Part shown: positions 10,097-60,113 of the stretch, one piece after another | How positions within the stretch are numbered: position 1 is the stretch's first letter | Layout: every line of letters begins with the position of its first letter | Assembly: GCA_963740355.1 (NCBI GenBank) | Contig: CAVUDW010000002.1 | Location: 1,472,001 to 1,536,000 of the forward strand | Direction: 5' to 3' | Length of the DNA: 64,000 nt | From: an uncultured Gemmatimonadaceae bacterium | Lineage (GTDB): Bacteria; Gemmatimonadota; Gemmatimonadetes; Gemmatimonadales; Gemmatimonadaceae | Program-made: the position numbers and the translations under genes | Notes under the pieces: generated by a model | Databases searched by the model: none | Seen by the model: only the letters and a program-made list of their open reading frames with translations | Told to the model about the DNA's origin: nothing

Positions 10097-10121
10097 TCGC
10101 GCCGGGGACTGCCGGGGCGCT

Positions 10122-10338
10122 GTACAGCGCAAACGGCGCTCAAGTAGCGCAGGAGCATGGGGTTAGCCTCCGATCAAGGGGTCGGAGATCTTGATCGGGG
10201 ATGTTTGACGCCAAATCGATCAAGGGGTCAGAGATGTTGATCGGGGAAATTTGACGTCAAACCGTTGCGGTGGATGGTGTTAGCCTCCGATCAAGGGGTC
10301 AGAGATCTTGATCCGATGATGGGGCAGAAATCCTGCTC
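10122..10338 (+). repeat. repeat array A of the 25-bp hairpin family (3 clear copies, 1 degenerate)
   Basis: Cores GATCAAGGGGTC(A/G)GAGAT(C/G)TTGATC at 10172, 10218 and 10289; degenerate copy at 10315-10338; leading GTAC at 10122. Confidence 0.92.
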
Positions 10339-10344
10339 CCAAGC

Positions 10345-11076
10345 CTACGCGCCGCGCTTCGCCCAGCGATACATGTAGGTCGGTTTGCGCCGACCGCCAA
10401 TACGGTGATCGGGCAGTCGCTCGACGAGCCCGAGTTCGAGCATTCGCTTCTGGAAATTACGCCGGTCGAGTGTGCGGCCCAGCACAGTCTCGTGGAGCTT
10501 CTGTAGTTCGGGCATCGTGAATGATGCGGGCAGCAGATTCGCCTCGAGTGGCAGGTCGTCGATCTGGGACCGCACCGCCATGAGCGCGCGCGCCACCATC
10601 TCATCGTGATCGATGATGAGCGCCGGTCGCTCCGCGAGGTCCCACCACTCGACGGATCGGGTCCAGGCATTCGGTGCGACCGTCGCACGACTGGAGTCCA
10701 CCACCGCGACGTAGCCGACGGAGACGACACGACCCAGCACCCAATGGTCGTGCGGCGCGTCAACGCCCATCGCGCGCAGTGCATTGGCGACAACCGCCTC
10801 GCCTCGCGCTGGCCCACCGAAGGTGTGGAACTGGCGCAGCGCAGTGTCCGACAGCCCGGTCATCTCGCGCAGCACACGGGTCGCGGCGTCATCGATCGAT
10901 TCCTCGCGGCGCACGTAGCCCCCTGGGAGCGACCAGTCGCCGGTTCCCTGGGACTGCATCAGCAGGACCTTCAGTGCGCCGGCGTGGGCACCGAAGATCA
11001 CGCTGTTCACCGAGAGGTGCGGCAGGCAGTCCCGGTCCAGTTCGACAAGGAGGTTCGAGAAGTCGACGGCGCTCAT
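10345..11076 (-). CDS. NrtR-family (Nudix + winged helix) transcriptional regulator
   Basis: N-terminal Nudix-like domain (WSLPGGYV...ESIDDAATRVLREMTGL) and C-terminal FTMPELQKLHETVLG..LDRRNFQKRML wHTH. Confidence 0.88.
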   Translation of the reverse strand: MSAVDFSNLLVELDRDCLPHLSVNSVIFGAHAGALKVLLMQSQGTGDWSLPGGYVRREESIDDAATRVLREMTGLSDTALRQFHTFGGPARGEAVVANALRAMGVDAPHDHWVLGRVVSVGYVAVVDSSRATVAPNAWTRSVEWWDLAERPALIIDHDEMVARALMAVRSQIDDLPLEANLLPASFTMPELQKLHETVLGRTLDRRNFQKRMLELGLVERLPDHRIGGRRKPTYMYRWAKRGA

Positions 11077-11094
11077 GGTCAAACCATAGGTGAT

Positions 11095-11139
11095 GTGTAT
11101 TGACTACACAATAACCGCCGGCTAGTGTACCTCGTACAC
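11095..11139. promoter_or_regulatory. two putative NrtR-type operator palindromes
   Basis: GTGTA-ttgac-TACAC (11095-11109) and GTGTAC-ctc-GTACAC (11125-11139). Both fit GT-N7-AC and lie between the divergent regulator and glucosidase genes. Confidence 0.7.
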
Positions 11140-11186
11140 ATCCCGGCCGGTCTCGTGTTCGGCCTTCGCTTCCTTCCGGACGCCGC

Positions 11187-13634
11187 ATGCGCCGACGACT
11201 TGCACACGCCCTTCTGTTTGCCGGGTTCACCGGCACTGCGGCTCGCGCCGCGATTGCACAGACCGCGGTCCCCTCGCTCCCGCAACTCGGCCGTGCGCCG
11301 CTGCGCGCCGTCGTTGCCGCCCTCTCCGATTCCGAGAAGGTGCGTCTCGTCGTGGGACGCGGGCTGATTCTCCCCGAGGGCATGCCGACGAACATGCTGC
11401 CGCCGGGTATGCTGGGCGGCGCGCGCACCGCGGACGATCGCCCGCTGCGGCTGCCTGGATCGGCTGGTGAAACGCACACGGTGCGACGCTTCGGCATCCC
11501 GGCGATCACGCTGTCGGACGGGCCGGCCGGTGTGCGAATCGATCCGATCCGCACCGGTGCCAACGGCAAGCCGGACAGTTCACGGACGTTCTACGCCACG
11601 GCGTTCCCGGTCGGGACTCTGCTCGCGTCGTCGTGGGACACGGCGCTCGTGCGGCGCGTTGGTGTGTCGTTCGGCCAGGAAGCGCGCGACTACGGTGTCG
11701 ATGTGTTGCTGATGCCGGGCATGAACCTGCACCGCAATCCGCTTGGCGGCCGCAACTTCGAGTACTACTCGGAGGATCCGCTCGTGACTGGGCTGATGGC
11801 GTCGGCGATGGTCGAGGGGTTGCAGTCGGCGGGGGTCGGCGCGTCAGTCAAGCACTTCGTAGCGAATGAGCAGGAGTTCAATCGCATGCGGATCAACTCC
11901 GCAATCGGCGAACGCGCGTTCCGTGAGCTCTACCTGCGTCCGTTCCAGACCGTCGTTCGACGTGCGAAGCCATGGACGGTGATGTCGTCGTACAATCTCG
12001 TCAACGGTGTGCACACGGCCGAGAATCCGGAACTGCTGAATGACATCCTTCGTGGTGAATGGTCGTTCGGTGGGCTCGTGATGAGTGACTGGTTCGGTGG
12101 TGAAGATCCGGTCGCGATGGTGAATGCCGGGAACGACCTCGTGATGCCGGGCACTGGCGCACAGGAAACCGCATTGCGCGCTGCACTCGCGAGCGGCAAG
12201 CTGTCGCGCGCCGCACTCGACGCGAGTGTCACACGCGTGCTCGAGCTGGTGCTCCGCTCGAACACCTTCCGCAAGGTTGCTGCGTCTGAACGCCCGGATT
12301 TGCGTGCGCACGCCGCCGTCGCCCGACAGGCGGCAGCCGAGAGCATGGTGCTATTGCGTAATGAATCGATTGGCACCGGTGCGTCGGCGCGTCCCGCGTT
12401 GCCGCTCGCGTCCGGGCAAACGGTCGCAGCGTTCGGCAACACGTCGTACGACCCGATCGCCGGCGGCACGGGCAGCGGCAACGTGAATCGTGCATACACG
12501 ATCTCGGTGGTGCAGGGACTGGATGCGGCCAAGGCTCGCATCGATACCTCGCTCAGTGCCACCTATGCGCGCTATCTCGCAACGGCCCGCTTGAAGCTGC
12601 CGCCAACCGGTCAGATGAACTTCTTCGCGCCGCCACCAGCGATTCAGGAAATGCAGTTGGATGCGGCCGTCGTGACAGAGGCTGCGGCACGCGCCGATGT
12701 CGGCCTGATCACGCTTGGACGCATCGCCGGTGAAGGCGGCGATCGCAAGGTCGCCGATGACTTTGCGCTGAAGGCGTCCGAGCGTGCGCTGATCGAGCAG
12801 GTATCGACGGCATTCCACGCCAAGGGCAAGCGTGTGGTGGTGGTGCTGAACATTGGCGGCCCGATCGAGATGGCAAGCTGGCGTGGCCAGGTTGATGCGA
12901 TCCTGCTCGCGTATCAACCGGGGCAGGAGGGAGGTCACGCCATCGCCGACGTACTGCTCGGCGCGGTGAATCCATCCGGCAAACTCGCAACGTCGTTCCC
13001 GATGTCGTACGAAGACATCCCCTACGGCGCGGACTTTCCCGGCCGCGTTCGCGCTGGTGCAGCGGCACCGAGCAACCCGATGAGTGGCCAGGCGTCGGAC
13101 AACTCGTACAACGAAGGCGTGTTCGTCGGCTATCGGTACGCGAGTACGTTCGGCAAGGCGCCGGCGTATGCGTTCGGCTTTGGGTCGAGCTACACGACGT
13201 TCCGGACCGGCGGGCTGCAGGTCACCGGTACGCCGACCATCGCTGCTGGGTCCATGACAGTGAAGGTGACGGTGACGAACACCGGCACCGTCGCCGGCCG
13301 CGAAGTGGCGCAGCTGTACGTCACCGCGCCGCGTGGCGCACTCGACATGCCGGAGCGTGAGTTGCGGGCCTTCGCGAAGACCCGGCTCCTCGCACCTGGG
13401 GCTTCAGAGACGCTGACCTTCCGACTCTCGGCTGCCGACATCGCGTCCTTCGATCCGTCGGCCGCGGCGTGGGTTGCCGAGCCGGGCACGTACACGGTGC
13501 GTGTGGCGAATTCGTCGGCCGCTGAGGGCGTTCATGCGACGGTGGCTGTTGCGAACCGCGTCATCGTCGAGCGTACGCGACATCTGGTCGCGCCGACGGC
13601 GCCGATTGCCGAGTTGAAGGCGCCGACGCGGTGA
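11187..13634 (+). CDS. secreted GH3 beta-glucosidase/xylosidase with C-terminal Fn3-like domain
   Basis: Signal peptide; DGPAGVR, GRNFEYYSEDP, KHFVANEQE, nucleophile motif VMSDW, VNPSGKL, EVAQLY. Confidence 0.92.
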   Translation: MRRRLAHALLFAGFTGTAARAAIAQTAVPSLPQLGRAPLRAVVAALSDSEKVRLVVGRGLILPEGMPTNMLPPGMLGGARTADDRPLRLPGSAGETHTVRRFGIPAITLSDGPAGVRIDPIRTGANGKPDSSRTFYATAFPVGTLLASSWDTALVRRVGVSFGQEARDYGVDVLLMPGMNLHRNPLGGRNFEYYSEDPLVTGLMASAMVEGLQSAGVGASVKHFVANEQEFNRMRINSAIGERAFRELYLRPFQTVVRRAKPWTVMSSYNLVNGVHTAENPELLNDILRGEWSFGGLVMSDWFGGEDPVAMVNAGNDLVMPGTGAQETALRAALASGKLSRAALDASVTRVLELVLRSNTFRKVAASERPDLRAHAAVARQAAAESMVLLRNESIGTGASARPALPLASGQTVAAFGNTSYDPIAGGTGSGNVNRAYTISVVQGLDAAKARIDTSLSATYARYLATARLKLPPTGQMNFFAPPPAIQEMQLDAAVVTEAAARADVGLITLGRIAGEGGDRKVADDFALKASERALIEQVSTAFHAKGKRVVVVLNIGGPIEMASWRGQVDAILLAYQPGQEGGHAIADVLLGAVNPSGKLATSFPMSYEDIPYGADFPGRVRAGAAAPSNPMSGQASDNSYNEGVFVGYRYASTFGKAPAYAFGFGSSYTTFRTGGLQVTGTPTIAAGSMTVKVTVTNTGTVAGREVAQLYVTAPRGALDMPERELRAFAKTRLLAPGASETLTFRLSAADIASFDPSAAAWVAEPGTYTVRVANSSAAEGVHATVAVANRVIVERTRHLVAPTAPIAELKAPTR

Positions 13635-13647
13635 TCGAGCGGTTGGT

Positions 13648-14009
13648 GTACGGCGCGAAGGACTGGTAAGTCGCTGGTGGAGATGGCGTTAGCCACCGAT
13701 CAAGGGGTCAGAGATCTTGGTCGGGGGATTCCGGCGGTAAGTCGTTGCGGCGCATCACGTTAGCCGCCGATCAAGGGGTCAGAGATCTTGGTCGGGGGAT
13801 TCCGGCGGTAAGTCGTTGCGGCGCCTCGCGTTAGCCACCGATCAAGGGGTCAGAGATCTTGGTCGATCAAGGGGTCAGAGATCTTGGTCGCGGGATTCCG
13901 GCGGTAAGTCGTTGCCGCGCCTCGCGTTAGCCACCGATCAAGGGGTCAGAGATCTTGCTCCGGCACCGAGCAAGATCTCTGACCCCTTGATCGCGCTGGC
14001 CCCGTGATC
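13648..14009 (+). repeat. repeat array B: five direct copies plus one inverted copy (transposase-free miniature element)
   Basis: Direct cores at 13698, 13769, 13840, 13865 and 13936; inverted core at 13968-13992; leading GTAC at 13648; degenerate half-copy ending at 14009. Confidence 0.93.
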
Positions 14010-14052
14010 GCTGCGCTCTTGCTCGGCAGACCACGACGCGCTTCCTCGCCCG

Positions 14053-56055: not shown

Positions 56056-57987
56056 GTGGTCACACACTACATCGTGCGGCTGGACCCGCTCGAGCTCGTG
56101 TTCAACACGAGGCCGATCACGGCCCTCCTCGGCTACACCGCCGACGAGTACGGCACGATGACGCTCGAGACGGTGAACCGCCTCATACATCCCGATGACG
56201 TACCCGCGCTGCAGGCGCACATCTCACGACTTCACCTGCTGGCGGATGGTGAAGTCGCGTTATTGCGGCACCGGATGCGCAATGCGGCCGGCGGCTGGGG
56301 GTGGATCGAAGTCCGCGACTCGGTCTTCACACGCACGGCCAGCGGCACGCCGGAACAGGTGATCGGGACGGCGCGTGAAGTCACCGCGCAGATGCGAACG
56401 GCGGAGGCGCTGGAGTCGAGTGAGGCCCGTCACCGCTTGTTGGTGGAAACCATGCTGCAGGGGGTGGTCCACCACGGCGCCGATGGGAGCATCATCGCGT
56501 TGAATCCCGCTGCGGAGCGCATCCTCGGCCGACCCCGCGATGACTTCATCGGCAGCGATCCATCACGCGAGGAGCAGCACACCATTCGTGAGGACGGTTC
56601 GGCGTTTCCTGGAGCGGAGCACCCATCGAGTGTGGCGCTTCGTACTGGTGCACCGATCCATGGCGTCGTCATGGGCGTCTACAACTGGGATCGGCGCGAG
56701 TATCGCTGGTTGAGCGTCGATGCGGTGCCACTGCGTCGTCCCGGAGAGTCGGTGCCGTACGAGGTCTACACCGTCTTCGAGGACATCACGGATCGCCTGC
56801 GGGCCGAAAAGGCGTTGCGCGACGCACACACGCGGAAGGATCATTTCATCGCCACGCTGGCGCATGAACTGCGGAATCCGCTGGCGCCGATTCGTCATGC
56901 CGTGGCCGTGCAGCAGCGTCGCGCAGCTGCCGCCGGTGATCCGGAACTGGCCTGGTCGCAGGCGATCATCGACCGACAGGTCGGACACATGTCGCGGTTG
57001 CTCGACGACCTGCTGGACGCGTCGCGGATCGCGAGCGGCAAGCTCGAACTGCGGCGCGAACTGGTCGGGTTGAACGCCGTCATCGCACAGTCGATCGAGA
57101 CGGCGCGACCGCAGATCGACGCGTTGCGGCATGCGCTGTCGGTGTCCTTGCCGACACCGGACGTTTACGTTGACGGCGACCCGATTCGTCTCGCACAGGT
57201 GTTCTCGAACCTGCTCACGAATGCTGCCAAGTACTCCGAGGCTGGTGGCAGCATCGCGGTGACAGCGAGTCGTGACGGGGACGGCGTGGCCGTCACCGTG
57301 CGCGATACTGGCATCGGCATCGATGCGGCGAACCTGACGCGAGTGTTCGAGATGTTCGGCCAGATCGATGCCGCGATCGATCGTTCGCAGGGCGGGCTCG
57401 GCATCGGACTCTCGCTGGCACAGGCGCTGGTGACGCTACACGGCGGCCGCATCACCGTGCAGAGCGACGGTCTGGGAAAAGGCACGTCATTCACGGTATT
57501 CCTCCCCACCTCTCCTGACGCAGCAATGCCAGACGAACAGTCGTCCACGCCGGAGCTTGCAGATCCTGTCACCCCGCGCCGGTTGCTGGTGGTGGATGAC
57601 AACCGTGACGGCTGTGATGCGCTCGCGACCCTGCTCGGCATGATGGGGTTCGAAGTGGCTACCGCCTATGACGGGCTGGAGGCCGTGGAGCGCGCCGTGG
57701 ACGGCACGCCGGACGTGGTGCTGATGGATGTTGGCCTGCCGCGCCTGAACGGCTACGAGGCCTGTACGGCGATCCGCGCCACCGTGGGTGGTGAGCGTAT
57801 CGTGATGCTGGCGGTGACCGGCTGGGGCGCGGCTGCCGACCTGCGCAACGCGACGCAAGCAGGGTTCGATGCCCACCTGGTGAAGCCGATCGACATGCAG
57901 TGGCTTGGCCAGCTGCTGCCGTTGCCGCGGTCGGAAGTGCAGCGGCTGGAGACGATCCGGCGGTTGCGGCTGGGGTACGAGGCGTGA
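56056..57987 (+). CDS. PAS-domain hybrid histidine kinase/response regulator
   Basis: Two PAS domains, LAHELRNPL, RL.QVFSNLL.NAAKY, GGLGIGL, receiver LVVDDN. Start at GTG 56056 is inferred. Confidence 0.9.
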   Translation: MVTHYIVRLDPLELVFNTRPITALLGYTADEYGTMTLETVNRLIHPDDVPALQAHISRLHLLADGEVALLRHRMRNAAGGWGWIEVRDSVFTRTASGTPEQVIGTAREVTAQMRTAEALESSEARHRLLVETMLQGVVHHGADGSIIALNPAAERILGRPRDDFIGSDPSREEQHTIREDGSAFPGAEHPSSVALRTGAPIHGVVMGVYNWDRREYRWLSVDAVPLRRPGESVPYEVYTVFEDITDRLRAEKALRDAHTRKDHFIATLAHELRNPLAPIRHAVAVQQRRAAAAGDPELAWSQAIIDRQVGHMSRLLDDLLDASRIASGKLELRRELVGLNAVIAQSIETARPQIDALRHALSVSLPTPDVYVDGDPIRLAQVFSNLLTNAAKYSEAGGSIAVTASRDGDGVAVTVRDTGIGIDAANLTRVFEMFGQIDAAIDRSQGGLGIGLSLAQALVTLHGGRITVQSDGLGKGTSFTVFLPTSPDAAMPDEQSSTPELADPVTPRRLLVVDDNRDGCDALATLLGMMGFEVATAYDGLEAVERAVDGTPDVVLMDVGLPRLNGYEACTAIRATVGGERIVMLAVTGWGAAADLRNATQAGFDAHLVKPIDMQWLGQLLPLPRSEVQRLETIRRLRLGYEA

Positions 57988-57996
57988 TGGGTGGGC

Positions 57997-58238
57997 GTAC
58001 ACGGGAATACCGGCGTAAGTCGTTGCACGGCCTGCGGTTAGGCGCCGATCAAGGGGTCGGAGATCTTGATCGATCAAGGGGTCAGAGATCTTGATCGGGA
58101 AAGTCTGGAGCTAAACACTTGCTCCGTAATGAGTTAGGCTCAGATCAAGGGGTCAGAGATCTTGATCGGGCGATTATGAAGCTAAATCGTTGCCCCTCTT
58201 CGCTTTAGGCTCAGATCAAGGGGTCAGAGATCTTGGTC
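57997..58238 (+). repeat. repeat array C (4 hairpin cores)
   Basis: Cores at 58047, 58072, 58143 and 58214 (spacings 25, 71, 71); leading GTAC at 57997. Confidence 0.93.
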
Positions 58239-58267
58239 GGCCGAATCGCGAGGAGTCGCGCATCGCA

Positions 58268-58978
58268 TTAGCGATGGTCGTTTTGCCAGCCCACACCCCT
58301 GCGATCGCCGCCGTGCTGCTGTGGCGTCACCCGGCGCTTCAACTGCGCCTCCAGCCGACGGAGCGCGCGGCTTTCACCCACTGCTGCACATCCGAGGCTC
58401 GCGGCGCGAATCGCCTCAATTTCTCGCCTTGGTGCATCCGCGCTGCAAAAGGCTCGATACGCAGCTTGTCGCGCGTCCGGCGTCATGCCGAGGGCATTGT
58501 ATGCACCGTGCGAGGTCAGGAGTTCGTCACAGCCCCCGTGTGCCAGGTGTCTGTGGCTCGACCACTCGTACTCCACCGCGTGGCGCACGATTCCAGCGCG
58601 AACGGGATTGAGGTCGATGTACCTACAGCACGCCAGAAAGTACCGATCGCTACCCACGATCATTGAGTGGAAGCGGCCGTCCCACAGAGTCCCGCTTCTG
58701 CGGTGCCGAGTATTCCAGTGTCGCACGAATCGACTGCCAACACGCTGCATGAGTCGCGAGGGACCGAGTGGATGCGACGCCGTAAGCAGAAGATGAATGT
58801 GGTTTGACATCAGCGCATACGCGTGCACGGCGCACGATGTGCTCCTGCTGGCGTGCATCAGGATTTCGCGGAAGTGCGCAAAATCCATTTCGTCGTGGAA
58901 CTTGAGCTCGCGATTGTGGCAGCGCTGAGTCAGGTGGATTGGAAAGCCTGGTGCAATGAGTCTTGGCATGCGCGCCAT
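58268..58978 (-). CDS. REP-associated-type tyrosine transposase (RAYT/TnpA-REP, Y1 HUH family)
   Basis: MARMPR...H.TQR..NR, AYALMSNHIHLL (HUH), G.LWDGRF.S, catalytic RYIDLNPVRAG, Y.WSS, plus a C-terminal extension. No tnpB nearby. Confidence 0.9.
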   Translation of the reverse strand: MARMPRLIAPGFPIHLTQRCHNRELKFHDEMDFAHFREILMHASRSTSCAVHAYALMSNHIHLLLTASHPLGPSRLMQRVGSRFVRHWNTRHRRSGTLWDGRFHSMIVGSDRYFLACCRYIDLNPVRAGIVRHAVEYEWSSHRHLAHGGCDELLTSHGAYNALGMTPDARQAAYRAFCSADAPRREIEAIRAASLGCAAVGESRALRRLEAQLKRRVTPQQHGGDRRGVGWQNDHR

Positions 58979-59204
58979 TTGCGCCTCGGTGCGTGAGCCG
59001 ACAGCTCGGTGGGAAACGCGTAAGGATGCCGCAGCCTCAAGCGCCGCAGACGGCGTGTGAACGACGCGATTCTATCGCTTGGCGCTTCTCAACACCGCAC
59101 CTGATTCGCGCATCGATCATCGCGTGCACGCCGGCGTATCATTCCTTCAGCCGTTTCGCGGTGGCGCAGCAGCAAAGGAGCACTGATCTGAGCGAGACTG
59201 AGCC

Positions 59205-59387
59205 GATCAAGATCTCTGACCCCTTGATCGAGACGTAAGGCTCGTACTACGAAGGCTTTAGCCCGCGAACTCGCCGATCAAGATCTCTGACCCCTTGATC
59301 GAGACGTAAGGCTCGTACTACTAAGGCTTTAGCCCGCGAACTCGCCGATCAAGATCTCTGACCCCTTGATCGGCTTTCACCTTGATC
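59205..59387 (-). repeat. repeat array D (3 inverted hairpin cores plus an outer half-copy)
   Basis: GATCAAGATCTCTGACCCCTTGATC at 59205, 59276 and 59347 (71-bp period); CTTGATC half-copy at 59381-59387. Confidence 0.93.
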
Positions 59388-59491
59388 GGATGCAGCCGCC
59401 TGCGCCAAAAACAACGCGCCCCGACCAGTCTCCTGATCGGGGCGCGTCGTCATCCGCGCATCGCAGCGCGTCACATCAAACGTTCATCGCA

Positions 59492-59908
59492 CTATCGACA
59501 GATCCACGGCGTCGCGTTTTCGCGCGCGGTGCTCCGGCGCGCACTCGTCTCGTCGATGGCAGTGAACGTCACCTCGAGAAACCCGTCGTCCTGACTCTGC
59601 GATGTGCACTGCATTTCCTTGCGGACACTGAAGGCGCCGTTCGCATCGGCCTTGATCGGGCCGAACGCAATCGCCTGGCTGGTGTTCGGCGGCGGCGACC
59701 CGGTGAGCTTCACCGGTCCGTTCGGCGTGAAGTTCGAACCCGTGATGGTGATCACGGGACCCGTCGCCTGACGCTGGATGCTCACGCTCAGCTTCAGCGG
59801 CGGTGTGGCCTGCGCATGGACCGCCATCGGCAGCGCAGCAAGGGCCAGCCCGAACAGGACAGTTGCCCCGATCGAGGACCAAGTGCGACGAGCCTGGTGG
59901 ACACGCAT
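59492..59908 (-). CDS. small exported hypothetical protein (Ig-like beta-rich)
   Basis: CAGGAG RBS, ATG 59908, signal peptide ending in VHA-Q, motifs ITITGSNFTPNGPV and ADANGAF, two Cys. Confidence 0.72.
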   Translation of the reverse strand: MRVHQARRTWSSIGATVLFGLALAALPMAVHAQATPPLKLSVSIQRQATGPVITITGSNFTPNGPVKLTGSPPPNTSQAIAFGPIKADANGAFSVRKEMQCTSQSQDDGFLEVTFTAIDETSARRSTARENATPWICR

Positions 59909-60113
59909 GAACGACTCCTGAAAAAGGGGTACCTGCAATCGAGGACGATTGCCGGCTGTCGAACGACACACCCACGACGACACACGTACATCGTATCGCG
60001 TGTAGGTGCAATTCGACACTGTAATATACACCGGTTCCGCGCTTGAGTTCACTGCGCCAAGTGGTTTGTTTCCTTGCACTTATGCCACTGCTCCGACCGC
60101 TGGTCAGGCTCCG

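Follow-up and report, generated by a model that had tools for sequence, protein, structure and literature searches.

A 64-kb stretch of DNA from an uncultured Gemmatimonadaceae bacterium (C2:1472001-1536000 of genome G000, which comprises 5.45 Mb in 5 contigs at 65% GC; we call the whole stretch the window) contains a gene for a Y1/HUH transposase-like protein that is bracketed by inverted arrays of a 25-nt hairpin repeat, GATCAAGGGGTCAGAGATCTTGATC. Copies of this 25-mer recur at many other places in the genome. We consider it likely that gene and repeats form a REP-associated tyrosine transposase system (RAYT, or TnpA-REP; REP, repetitive extragenic palindrome) of the TIRYT, or 'TIRtron', type, i.e. 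TnpAY1 subclass 2.1 or Bertels Group 1. As defined in the text of Di Nocera et al. (2013; PMC3733652), TIRYTs or TIRtrons are RAYT-like genes flanked by terminal inverted repeats (TIRs) that share the motif GGGGWSAS; many TIRs are said there to occur in dimers or clusters and to form moderately abundant families. The account of Quentin et al. (2018; PMC6006769) places 20 of 26 TIRYTs in subclass 2.1, equated with Bertels Group 1. A preliminary description of this DNA had proposed a REPtron-like nuclease/repeat system with its own repeat family and architecture. Much of that proposal stands, namely the single-copy gene, the genome-wide cognate repeats and an inverted layout that is found again at orthologues; its claims to novelty and to a private architecture are overstated, since the TIRYT/TIRtron class had been published and the motif also flanks homologue loci. 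The GGGGWSAS motif, which it had named, is in print in both papers.

The cassette and its transposase

At up to 3 mismatches, the 25-mer has 16 matches in the window and 0 in 100 dinucleotide-preserving shuffles. The matches fall at three loci, 10172-10313, 13698-13992 and 58047-59371, the last of which contains the gene (Table 1). Read on the coding strand of the Y1/HUH gene, the downstream copies are reverse complements, and GGGGTCAG is present in every flanking copy, inverted across the gene. Judged by its sequence, then, the cassette is what defines a TIRYT or TIRtron, a gene flanked by inverted GGGGWSAS-bearing repeats. Tandem Repeats Finder reports periods of 25 and 71 nt in the window arrays; the upstream array, with a period of 71 nt at 99% matches, ends 226 nt from the ATG. 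The inverted copy that closes the array at 13698-13992 forms a doublet at the array end like those of REPINs (REP doublets forming hairpins). These results bear out the preliminary description in its intact open reading frame (ORF) with HIH and catalytic Tyr, its bracketing inverted arrays, its count of 16 copies at three loci, and its satellite arrays some 45 kb away, for which we measure 44-48 kb from the gene.

Table 1. Features of the cassette and of the satellite arrays (positions in the window)
Feature	Position	Strand	Description
Satellite array	10172..10313	+	3 copies of the 25-mer in an intergenic gap
Satellite array	13698..13992	+	5 '+' copies, then a single inverted '-' copy at 32 nt (start to start)
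Whole cassette (array, gene, array)	57988..59410	.	left bound, histidine-kinase stop codon; right bound, terminator-like hairpin
Leading 46-nt-type module, GGGAATACCGGCGTAAGTCGTTG...GGTTAGGCGCC	58003..58046	+	opens the downstream array; preceded by GTACAC
Array downstream of Y1/HUH gene	58047..58238	+	4 copies of the 25-mer, at 58047, 58072, 58143 and 58214; spacing 25, 71 and 71 nt
Y1/HUH gene	58268..58978	-	intact ORF, 236 aa, RAYT-type; single copy in genome
Array upstream of Y1/HUH gene	59205..59371	-	3 exact copies, at 59205, 59276 and 59347; motif strand is the coding strand
Terminator-like hairpin, CGCGCCCCGA...TCGGGGCGCG	59415-59447		GC-rich; after small secreted protein gene; right cassette edge

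In the translated ORF the HUH motif is H60-I-H62, within SNHIHLL, and the catalytic residue is Tyr120, within RYIDLNPVRAG; all three residues are invariant across 36 aligned homologues. The Pfam family Y1_Tnp (PF01797) matches at E 2.9e-12, with 47.2 bits against a cutoff of 23, and the NCBIfam IS200 model scores far below REP_Tyr_transpos. An AlphaFold (AF2) model of the protein has a pLDDT of 90.9. Its best Foldseek match in the PDB is 4ER8, the Escherichia coli TnpA-REP bound to a REP hairpin (E 1.7e-8, TM 0.77 on the target), followed by the TnpA proteins of ISDra2 and IS608, the three spanning E 1.7e-8 to 1e-4; by sequence alone the match to 4ER8 is marginal (E 0.023, 19% identity). The model adds a confidently predicted helical C-terminal extension, residues ~142-213, past the 165-aa core of 4ER8. 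By motifs, Pfam match and predicted fold the protein is a member of the HUH-Y1 transposase superfamily, and by its YIDLNP (Y---NP) motif and low intragenomic copy number it is assigned to TnpAY1 class 2 (TnpA-REP/RAYT). A whole-genome tblastn search gave one copy of the gene and one 37%-identical paralogue, at C3:374499-375140. An insertion sequence (IS) of the IS200/IS605 family, typically present in several near-identical copies and often with tnpB, was also considered and is ruled out by the single copy, by Y---N instead of the Y---Q motif, and by the neighbours, a kinase and a small secreted protein.

To which subclass does the protein belong? Table 1 of PMC6006769 gives subclass 2.1 a median length of 238 aa and the signatures NHVH/NH[YF]H, W[EQ] and YIELNP/Y[IV]HLNP, and the accompanying text gives it a C-terminal helix-turn-helix-like (HTH-like) domain (Bac_DnaA_C, HTH_23 or HTH_28). 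The present protein, of 236 aa, has NHIH, WD and YIDLNP; by -LNP and length it is closest to subclass 2.1 among the 12 subclasses, though it is not letter-exact and has no Pfam HTH. Judged by signature motifs and length it probably belongs to subclass 2.1, or Group 1, as tabulated there, and it shares with that group NH.H, Y...LNP, the low copy number and a C-terminal extension. It differs in the abundance of its repeat: the commonest flanking 16-mer has a mean of 12 occurrences in Group 1, 57 in Group 2 and 140 in Group 3 according to the text of Bertels et al. (2017; PMC5581495), against about 200 copies of the flanking repeat here. Its nearest named homologues come from metagenome-assembled genomes of Gemmatimonadaceae.

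We searched 80 homologue loci, all from named genomes and chiefly those of beta- and gammaproteobacteria, for GGGG[AT][CG]A[CG]. The motif lies upstream on the coding strand at 51 of 79 loci and its reverse complement downstream at 51 of 74, with both at 35; the control orientations gave 8, 6 and 1, respectively. It is nearly always GGGGTCAG or GGGGACAG, and at several loci it makes up the 5' half of a palindrome that is almost perfect, for example TTAATTGGGGTCAGACCCCAATTAA. Because the motif flanks homologues across Proteobacteria, the GGGGWSAS-type motif is a hallmark of the clade and not private to this genome.

The repeat family and its arrays

As single-stranded DNA (ssDNA), the 27-mer folds into a hairpin of -5.8 kcal/mol (z -3.3), with 8 bp in the stem and 11 nt in the loop, and not one of 200 shuffled sequences reaches so stable a fold; the preliminary description had given a stem of 7-9 bp and the same loop. 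The logo of 198 copies from the whole genome reads C-GATCAAGGGGTC[A/G]GAGATCTTG[A/G]TC-G, with C(-1) and G(+26) as conserved flanks. Within the 25-mer the invariant part is CAAGGGGTC[A/G]GAGATCTTG, and variation is all but absent from the loop and inner stem. Position 23 is G in 48 copies, and with it a G·T pair is preserved on the written strand alone. As first noticed in the window copies, there is no GTAG-type foot: the logo lacks GT[AG]G at the hairpin foot, with C at -1 and C or any base farther out. A weakly conserved GTTAG lies 5-9 nt upstream of the 25-mer, within the 46-nt module treated below. A canonical REPtron (subclasses 2.2, 2.4, 2.5, 2.7 and 2.8), which has a 5' GT[AG]G foot, was set aside on this logo. 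In ssDNA folding, half-stems of neighbouring tandem copies can pair with each other too, and the variant of the congener G017 clearly favours a fold in which the motif is single-stranded beside a palindrome. In tandem arrays the sequence would fit a motif that forms the loop as well as one that is a single-stranded 'foot' next to a palindrome.

The repeat has spread outside genes. A whole-genome scan for the 25-mer, which the preliminary description had suggested, found the 198 copies (up to 3 mismatches; 62 exact) in 45 clusters on two large contigs. All but two lie wholly outside called ORFs (196/198; one overlaps by at least 20 nt, one partly), the calls being those of a crude GC3-based caller and covering ~85% of the genome. 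The 25-mer family is repetitive, extragenic and palindromic, because it has 198 copies, 196 of them outside ORFs, and an 8-bp stem; it is REP in the descriptive sense of a short, palindromic, extragenic sequence of high copy number.

Most copies are in direct tandem, and the dominant copy spacings genome-wide are 71 and 25 nt. In the 71-nt period the 25-mer is joined to a 46-nt module; 67 of 105 same-strand spacers have exactly this length. Units have been duplicated locally: modules are 0.89 identical within arrays, 0.51 between arrays and 0.27 for shuffled partners. The 25-mer is uniform genome-wide, with identities of 0.95 within and 0.93 between arrays. The module has the skeleton GGggaaTTc.gGgc.TAAg.c.TTG....gcA..G.gTTAg.c.CC, and keeps its exact length while the rest drifts. 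Its TAAg.c.TTG part is loosely reminiscent of an IHF-type site, as in the linkers of E. coli bacterial interspersed mosaic elements (BIMEs). RNAalifold found no consensus structure in 46 non-redundant modules; compensatory stems that seemed apparent by eye were rejected as inconsistent. At least 10 arrays begin with a module starting GTACA, and some finish with an inverted copy, in our own reading of the listed arrays.

A periodicity of 25 + 46 nt is superficially that of repeat and spacer, and one might take the arrays for CRISPR-like loci or for clusters of small-RNA genes. We find this hardly credible. The 'spacers' are ~89% identical within an array and have a skeleton that is common across arrays, of which there are 45; these module identities within and between arrays contradict spacers, and we reject the CRISPR-like reading. 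Nor did an Rfam search of window positions 57000-60000 give a family that matches the repeats, RNAalifold a module structure, or the arrays examined a cas-like gene beside them.

Strand switches within clusters comprise 19 '+-' junctions and 2 '-+' junctions; '+-' is the polarity found around the Y1/HUH gene. Since a '+-' junction occurs in only 18 of the 45 clusters, a REPIN, with the inverted doublet as its predominant unit, is ruled out. About ten partial copies at array edges break at unit positions 12-15, too few to name a cleavage site, and short seeds for further partial copies gave mostly background matches inside genes. A rare head-to-head fusion, GATCAAGGGGTCAGACCCCTTGATC, in which GGGG pairs with CCCC, is seen at the edges of arrays at C3:1111656-1111941 and C3:1572256-1572804; it resembles the palindromic form beside the proteobacterial homologues. 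A few copies of the variants that predominate in other congeners also occur in G000 (GGGGACGGAGTTC..., with GGGGACGGAGTTC present in 10 copies, and TTCAAGGGGTCAGAGTCCTTGAA), at C2:315179-315275 and C2:361180-361215, and may be relics or minor subfamilies.

The genome has a second RAYT system. The paralogue noted above has NHAH and YVLLNP and is 34-37% identical to the Y1/HUH protein; a 20-mer of its own, CCGGTGACAGTGCACTCATT, flanks it as two inverted pairs. This 20-mer has 124 copies genome-wide, often as inverted doublets 27 nt apart (control 0), and none in the 64-kb window. Two paralogues with two private repeat families is the expected RAYT pattern.

Gene and repeat in related genomes

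We compared 40 related genomes, 19 congeners and 21 from outside the genus; they are kin, and many are fragmented, so that the counts are descriptive. Orthologues (46-59% identity, E <=1e-60) occur in 11 of the 19 congeners. The 21 from outside the genus gave none; G020, one of them, has a 32%-identical match of the paralogue type. Within the genus, gene and repeat are linked. As the preliminary description had thought worth asking of homologues, related repeats, of the type GGGG[AT]C[AG]G[AG]G, lie beside the gene at 12 of 13 congener orthologue loci, L010 being without any. The flanking copies follow an orientation rule. Upstream sequence is available at 12 loci, of which 10 have the motif on the coding strand and none has it on the other; within 600 nt downstream, 9 of 11 loci carry it on the strand opposite to the coding one. 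At L002 the downstream copies are 650-700 nt away, and L012 has no downstream copies.

Gene and repeat also vary together. Repeat variants are genome-specific, with CAAGGGGTCAGAGCACTTG in G017 and CAAGGGGACGGAGATCTTG in G009; G012 has 23-nt tandem units around GGGGACGGAG plus a short palindrome, e.g. CATGGGGACGGAGTTCGTGAGCT, with related units in G005, G018 and G019. The pattern CAWGGGGWCRGAGNNCTTG occurs 185 times in G000, 127 in G017, 114 in G014, 101 in G008, 97 in G007, 84 in G010, 68 in G015, 53 in G018, 40 in G009 and 34 in G002, at most 7 times in the remaining congeners, and not once in the 21 genomes from other genera; its reversed control gave 0 in every genome. The second variant, GGGGACGGAGTTC, is counted 114 times in G012, 62 in G005, 59 in G019, 34 in G017 and 24 in G018, and the 13-nt pattern for variant 2 has 0-2 matches per genome in the 21 outside the genus, which is the control level. 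From the per-genome counts of both variants, every one of the 12 gene-bearing genomes has one of them in 34 copies or more, and in 7 of the 8 congeners that lack an orthologue the count does not exceed 6. In these sequences, repeat abundance tracks gene presence across the genus, with the exception of G014. The preliminary description had held that abundance of the repeat in lineages without the gene would speak against the association; that abundance is lacking in seven such congeners and present, at 114 copies, in G014.

Does the cassette move? In G017 and G009 the gene is at the same site as in G000, between the hybrid histidine kinase and the small secreted protein, which prfA follows. In G008, G010 and G014 the kinase adjoins the small protein, with a ~120-170 nt gap that has neither gene nor motif. 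This comparison of filled and empty sites, another that the preliminary description had suggested, marks the cassette as an indel, because the site is filled in three genomes and empty in three. The terminator-like hairpin at the right edge is kept in all five congeners. At 10 further orthologue loci the gene is in other contexts. One might think therefore of an IS-like transposon still moving as a unit, with the dispersed arrays as non-autonomous derivatives, like miniature inverted-repeat transposable elements (MITEs), mobilised in trans; the text of PMC5581495 describes Group 1 as the RAYT group most like an IS, with duplicates at 6.3% and some of its members on plasmids. We regard this as rather unlikely. 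The gene is single in the genome, with no near-identical second copy. At the syntenic site identities to G000 in G017 and G009 are 92% and 74% for the small protein, 88% and 80% for prfA, and 59% and 55% for the RAYTs, and the three syntenic RAYTs are mutually closest, which vertical descent followed by loss fits too.

The two satellite arrays in the window bound a 3.9-kb segment (10100-14050) that carries an 815-aa ORF (11187-13634) and a smaller ORF. G017 has the segment; G009, G010 and G008 lack it, their outer genes being 41-233 nt apart with no motif copies between them. The satellite arrays may mark an indel or recombination site. At the orthologous site G017 has an array that corresponds to the one at 13698-13992 (G017 C126:1-100 and C61:16-88) and is broken by contig ends. 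Orthologous arrays carry genome-specific variants, because this counterpart is built from G017's own variant; the comparison of orthologous arrays covered this site and the RAYT locus.

The repeats might instead serve the host, for example in 3'-end RNA structure, termination or protein binding, and owe their spread and upkeep to recombination and slippage alone; the Y1 protein would then be a bystander or have another role. The arrays do favour gene 3' ends, the clusters lying in 16 convergent, 22 tandem (co-directional) and 7 divergent gaps, and array orientation is that of the flanking genes in 16 of the 22 tandem gaps (counted by hand). Moreover, modules are array-specific, and G014 keeps its copies with no orthologue found. 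A purely host-driven origin is nevertheless quite improbable in our judgement. It sits poorly with the orientation-specific layout around the gene at 12 of 13 congener loci and at dozens of distant homologue loci, with repeat variants that change together with the gene, with two paralogues that have two separate families, and with a 25-mer that is 93% identical between arrays whose modules have drifted to 51%.

Possible mechanism and known relatives

How would a RAYT of the TIRYT type maintain such a family? By analogy with E. coli TnpA-REP and IS608/ISDra2, the enzyme would bind the repeat as folded ssDNA, reading GGGG[AT]C[AG]GAG at or beside the stem. Tyr120 would cut and rejoin one strand, at or near the invariant motif, and this reaction would seed new copies and keep the 25-mer uniform genome-wide. 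Arrays might then grow locally by duplication of units made up of the 46-nt module and the 25-mer.

A more specific scheme places the nick inside the hairpin loop, at GGGGTC^AGAG, and has cut-and-rejoin between copies drive the 71-nt tandem growth, the homogenisation of the 25-mer to the RAYT-preferred variant, and the gain and loss of genes between arrays. Rep-type HUH nickases do nick inside a hairpin loop, and IS608 TnpA cuts beside the hairpin. Weak hints of such a reaction are the ~ten partial copies broken at 12-15, the GATCAAGGGGTCAGACCCCTTGATC fusions and the excess of '+-' over '-+' junctions (19 vs 2); the genome-specific variants in orthologous arrays of G000 and G017, and the 3.9-kb segment missing in three congeners, are further weak hints. 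We think this scheme unlikely.

Several points weigh against the assignment to a TIRYT-type RAYT system and its proposed action. The score for the NCBIfam model REP_Tyr_transpos, 79.7 bits, is 0.3 bits below its cutoff of 80. The protein has Cys where at least 90% of the 36 homologues have Gly (G20), and no HTH family was found in the C-terminal part in any of the 36 homologues (Pfam, E up to 1). In G014, which is 96% complete, the search gave nothing closer than a 36%-identical paralogue to go with the 114 copies; either the repeats there are orphaned or the assembly has a gap. IS608-type elements show a strong replication-strand bias. Here there is no strong bias (63+/38- on C2, 42+/55- on C3; 26/41 clusters), and the weak replichore bias of copies is confounded with gene orientation. 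Simple slippage or unequal recombination could account for the local growth of arrays without the enzyme. Finally, the literature searched contains no biochemistry of any TIRYT or subclass 2.1 protein.

The assignment to the TIRYT type nonetheless seems to us the best explanation. Going by the text descriptions of published TIRs in PMC3733652, the present system is like a TIRYT/TIRtron in its tyrosine transposase gene, its inverted GGGGWSAS repeats without a GTAG tag, and its repeats able to form dimers, clusters and moderately abundant families. It is unlike those described there in having 198 copies, mostly in direct tandem arrays (25 and 71 nt), a length-conserved 46-nt module and a Gemmatimonadota host. 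The E. coli REPtron (TnpA-REP, 4ER8) likewise has a single-copy Y1 gene bracketed by inverted extragenic palindromic repeats, and the predicted fold is the same; the differences are the 19% identity, the lack of a GTAG foot, direct arrays vs alternating BIMEs, and conservation of the loop motif and not of the stem. With the Pseudomonas REPIN-RAYT system, as outlined by Bertels and Rainey (2011; PMC3116915), the present one shares a vertically inherited single-copy RAYT with cognate repeats, and inverted doublets exist; however, most copies here are direct tandem and not doublets, and the Pseudomonas RAYT belongs to Group 3.

What does the finding add? The TIRYT kind itself is known, and the known picture of RAYT-repeat systems is unchanged. 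Notable here are the ~200 copies, the direct tandem arrays, the 71-nt composite unit and the Gemmatimonadaceae host. TIRYT / subclass 2.1 is the second largest TnpAY1 subclass, present in 14.9% of strains according to the text of PMC6006769, which also states that automatic and manual searches found no REP-like sequences for it. If our placement of the protein by motifs and length is right, a ~200-copy repeat beside the gene contradicts that statement, as worded there. Neither the main text and four supplements of PMC3733652 nor two supplements of PMC6006769 have a Gemmatimonadota or Gemmatimonadetes entry, and among the matches listed, judged by titles and abstracts, no paper links RAYTs with Gemmatimonadetes. 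The genus offers a natural series: one gene with ~200 uniform copies, sisters with shifted variants, empty sites and orphan repeats. Such a series could define what TIRYT / subclass 2.1 enzymes recognise, and whether they maintain their repeats.

Two minor results remain. A promoter and terminator scan gave nothing informative. An Rfam match to malK-III at window positions 57224-57315 (- strand), inside the histidine kinase gene, scores 27.5 bits against a gathering score of 50 and is most likely due to chance.

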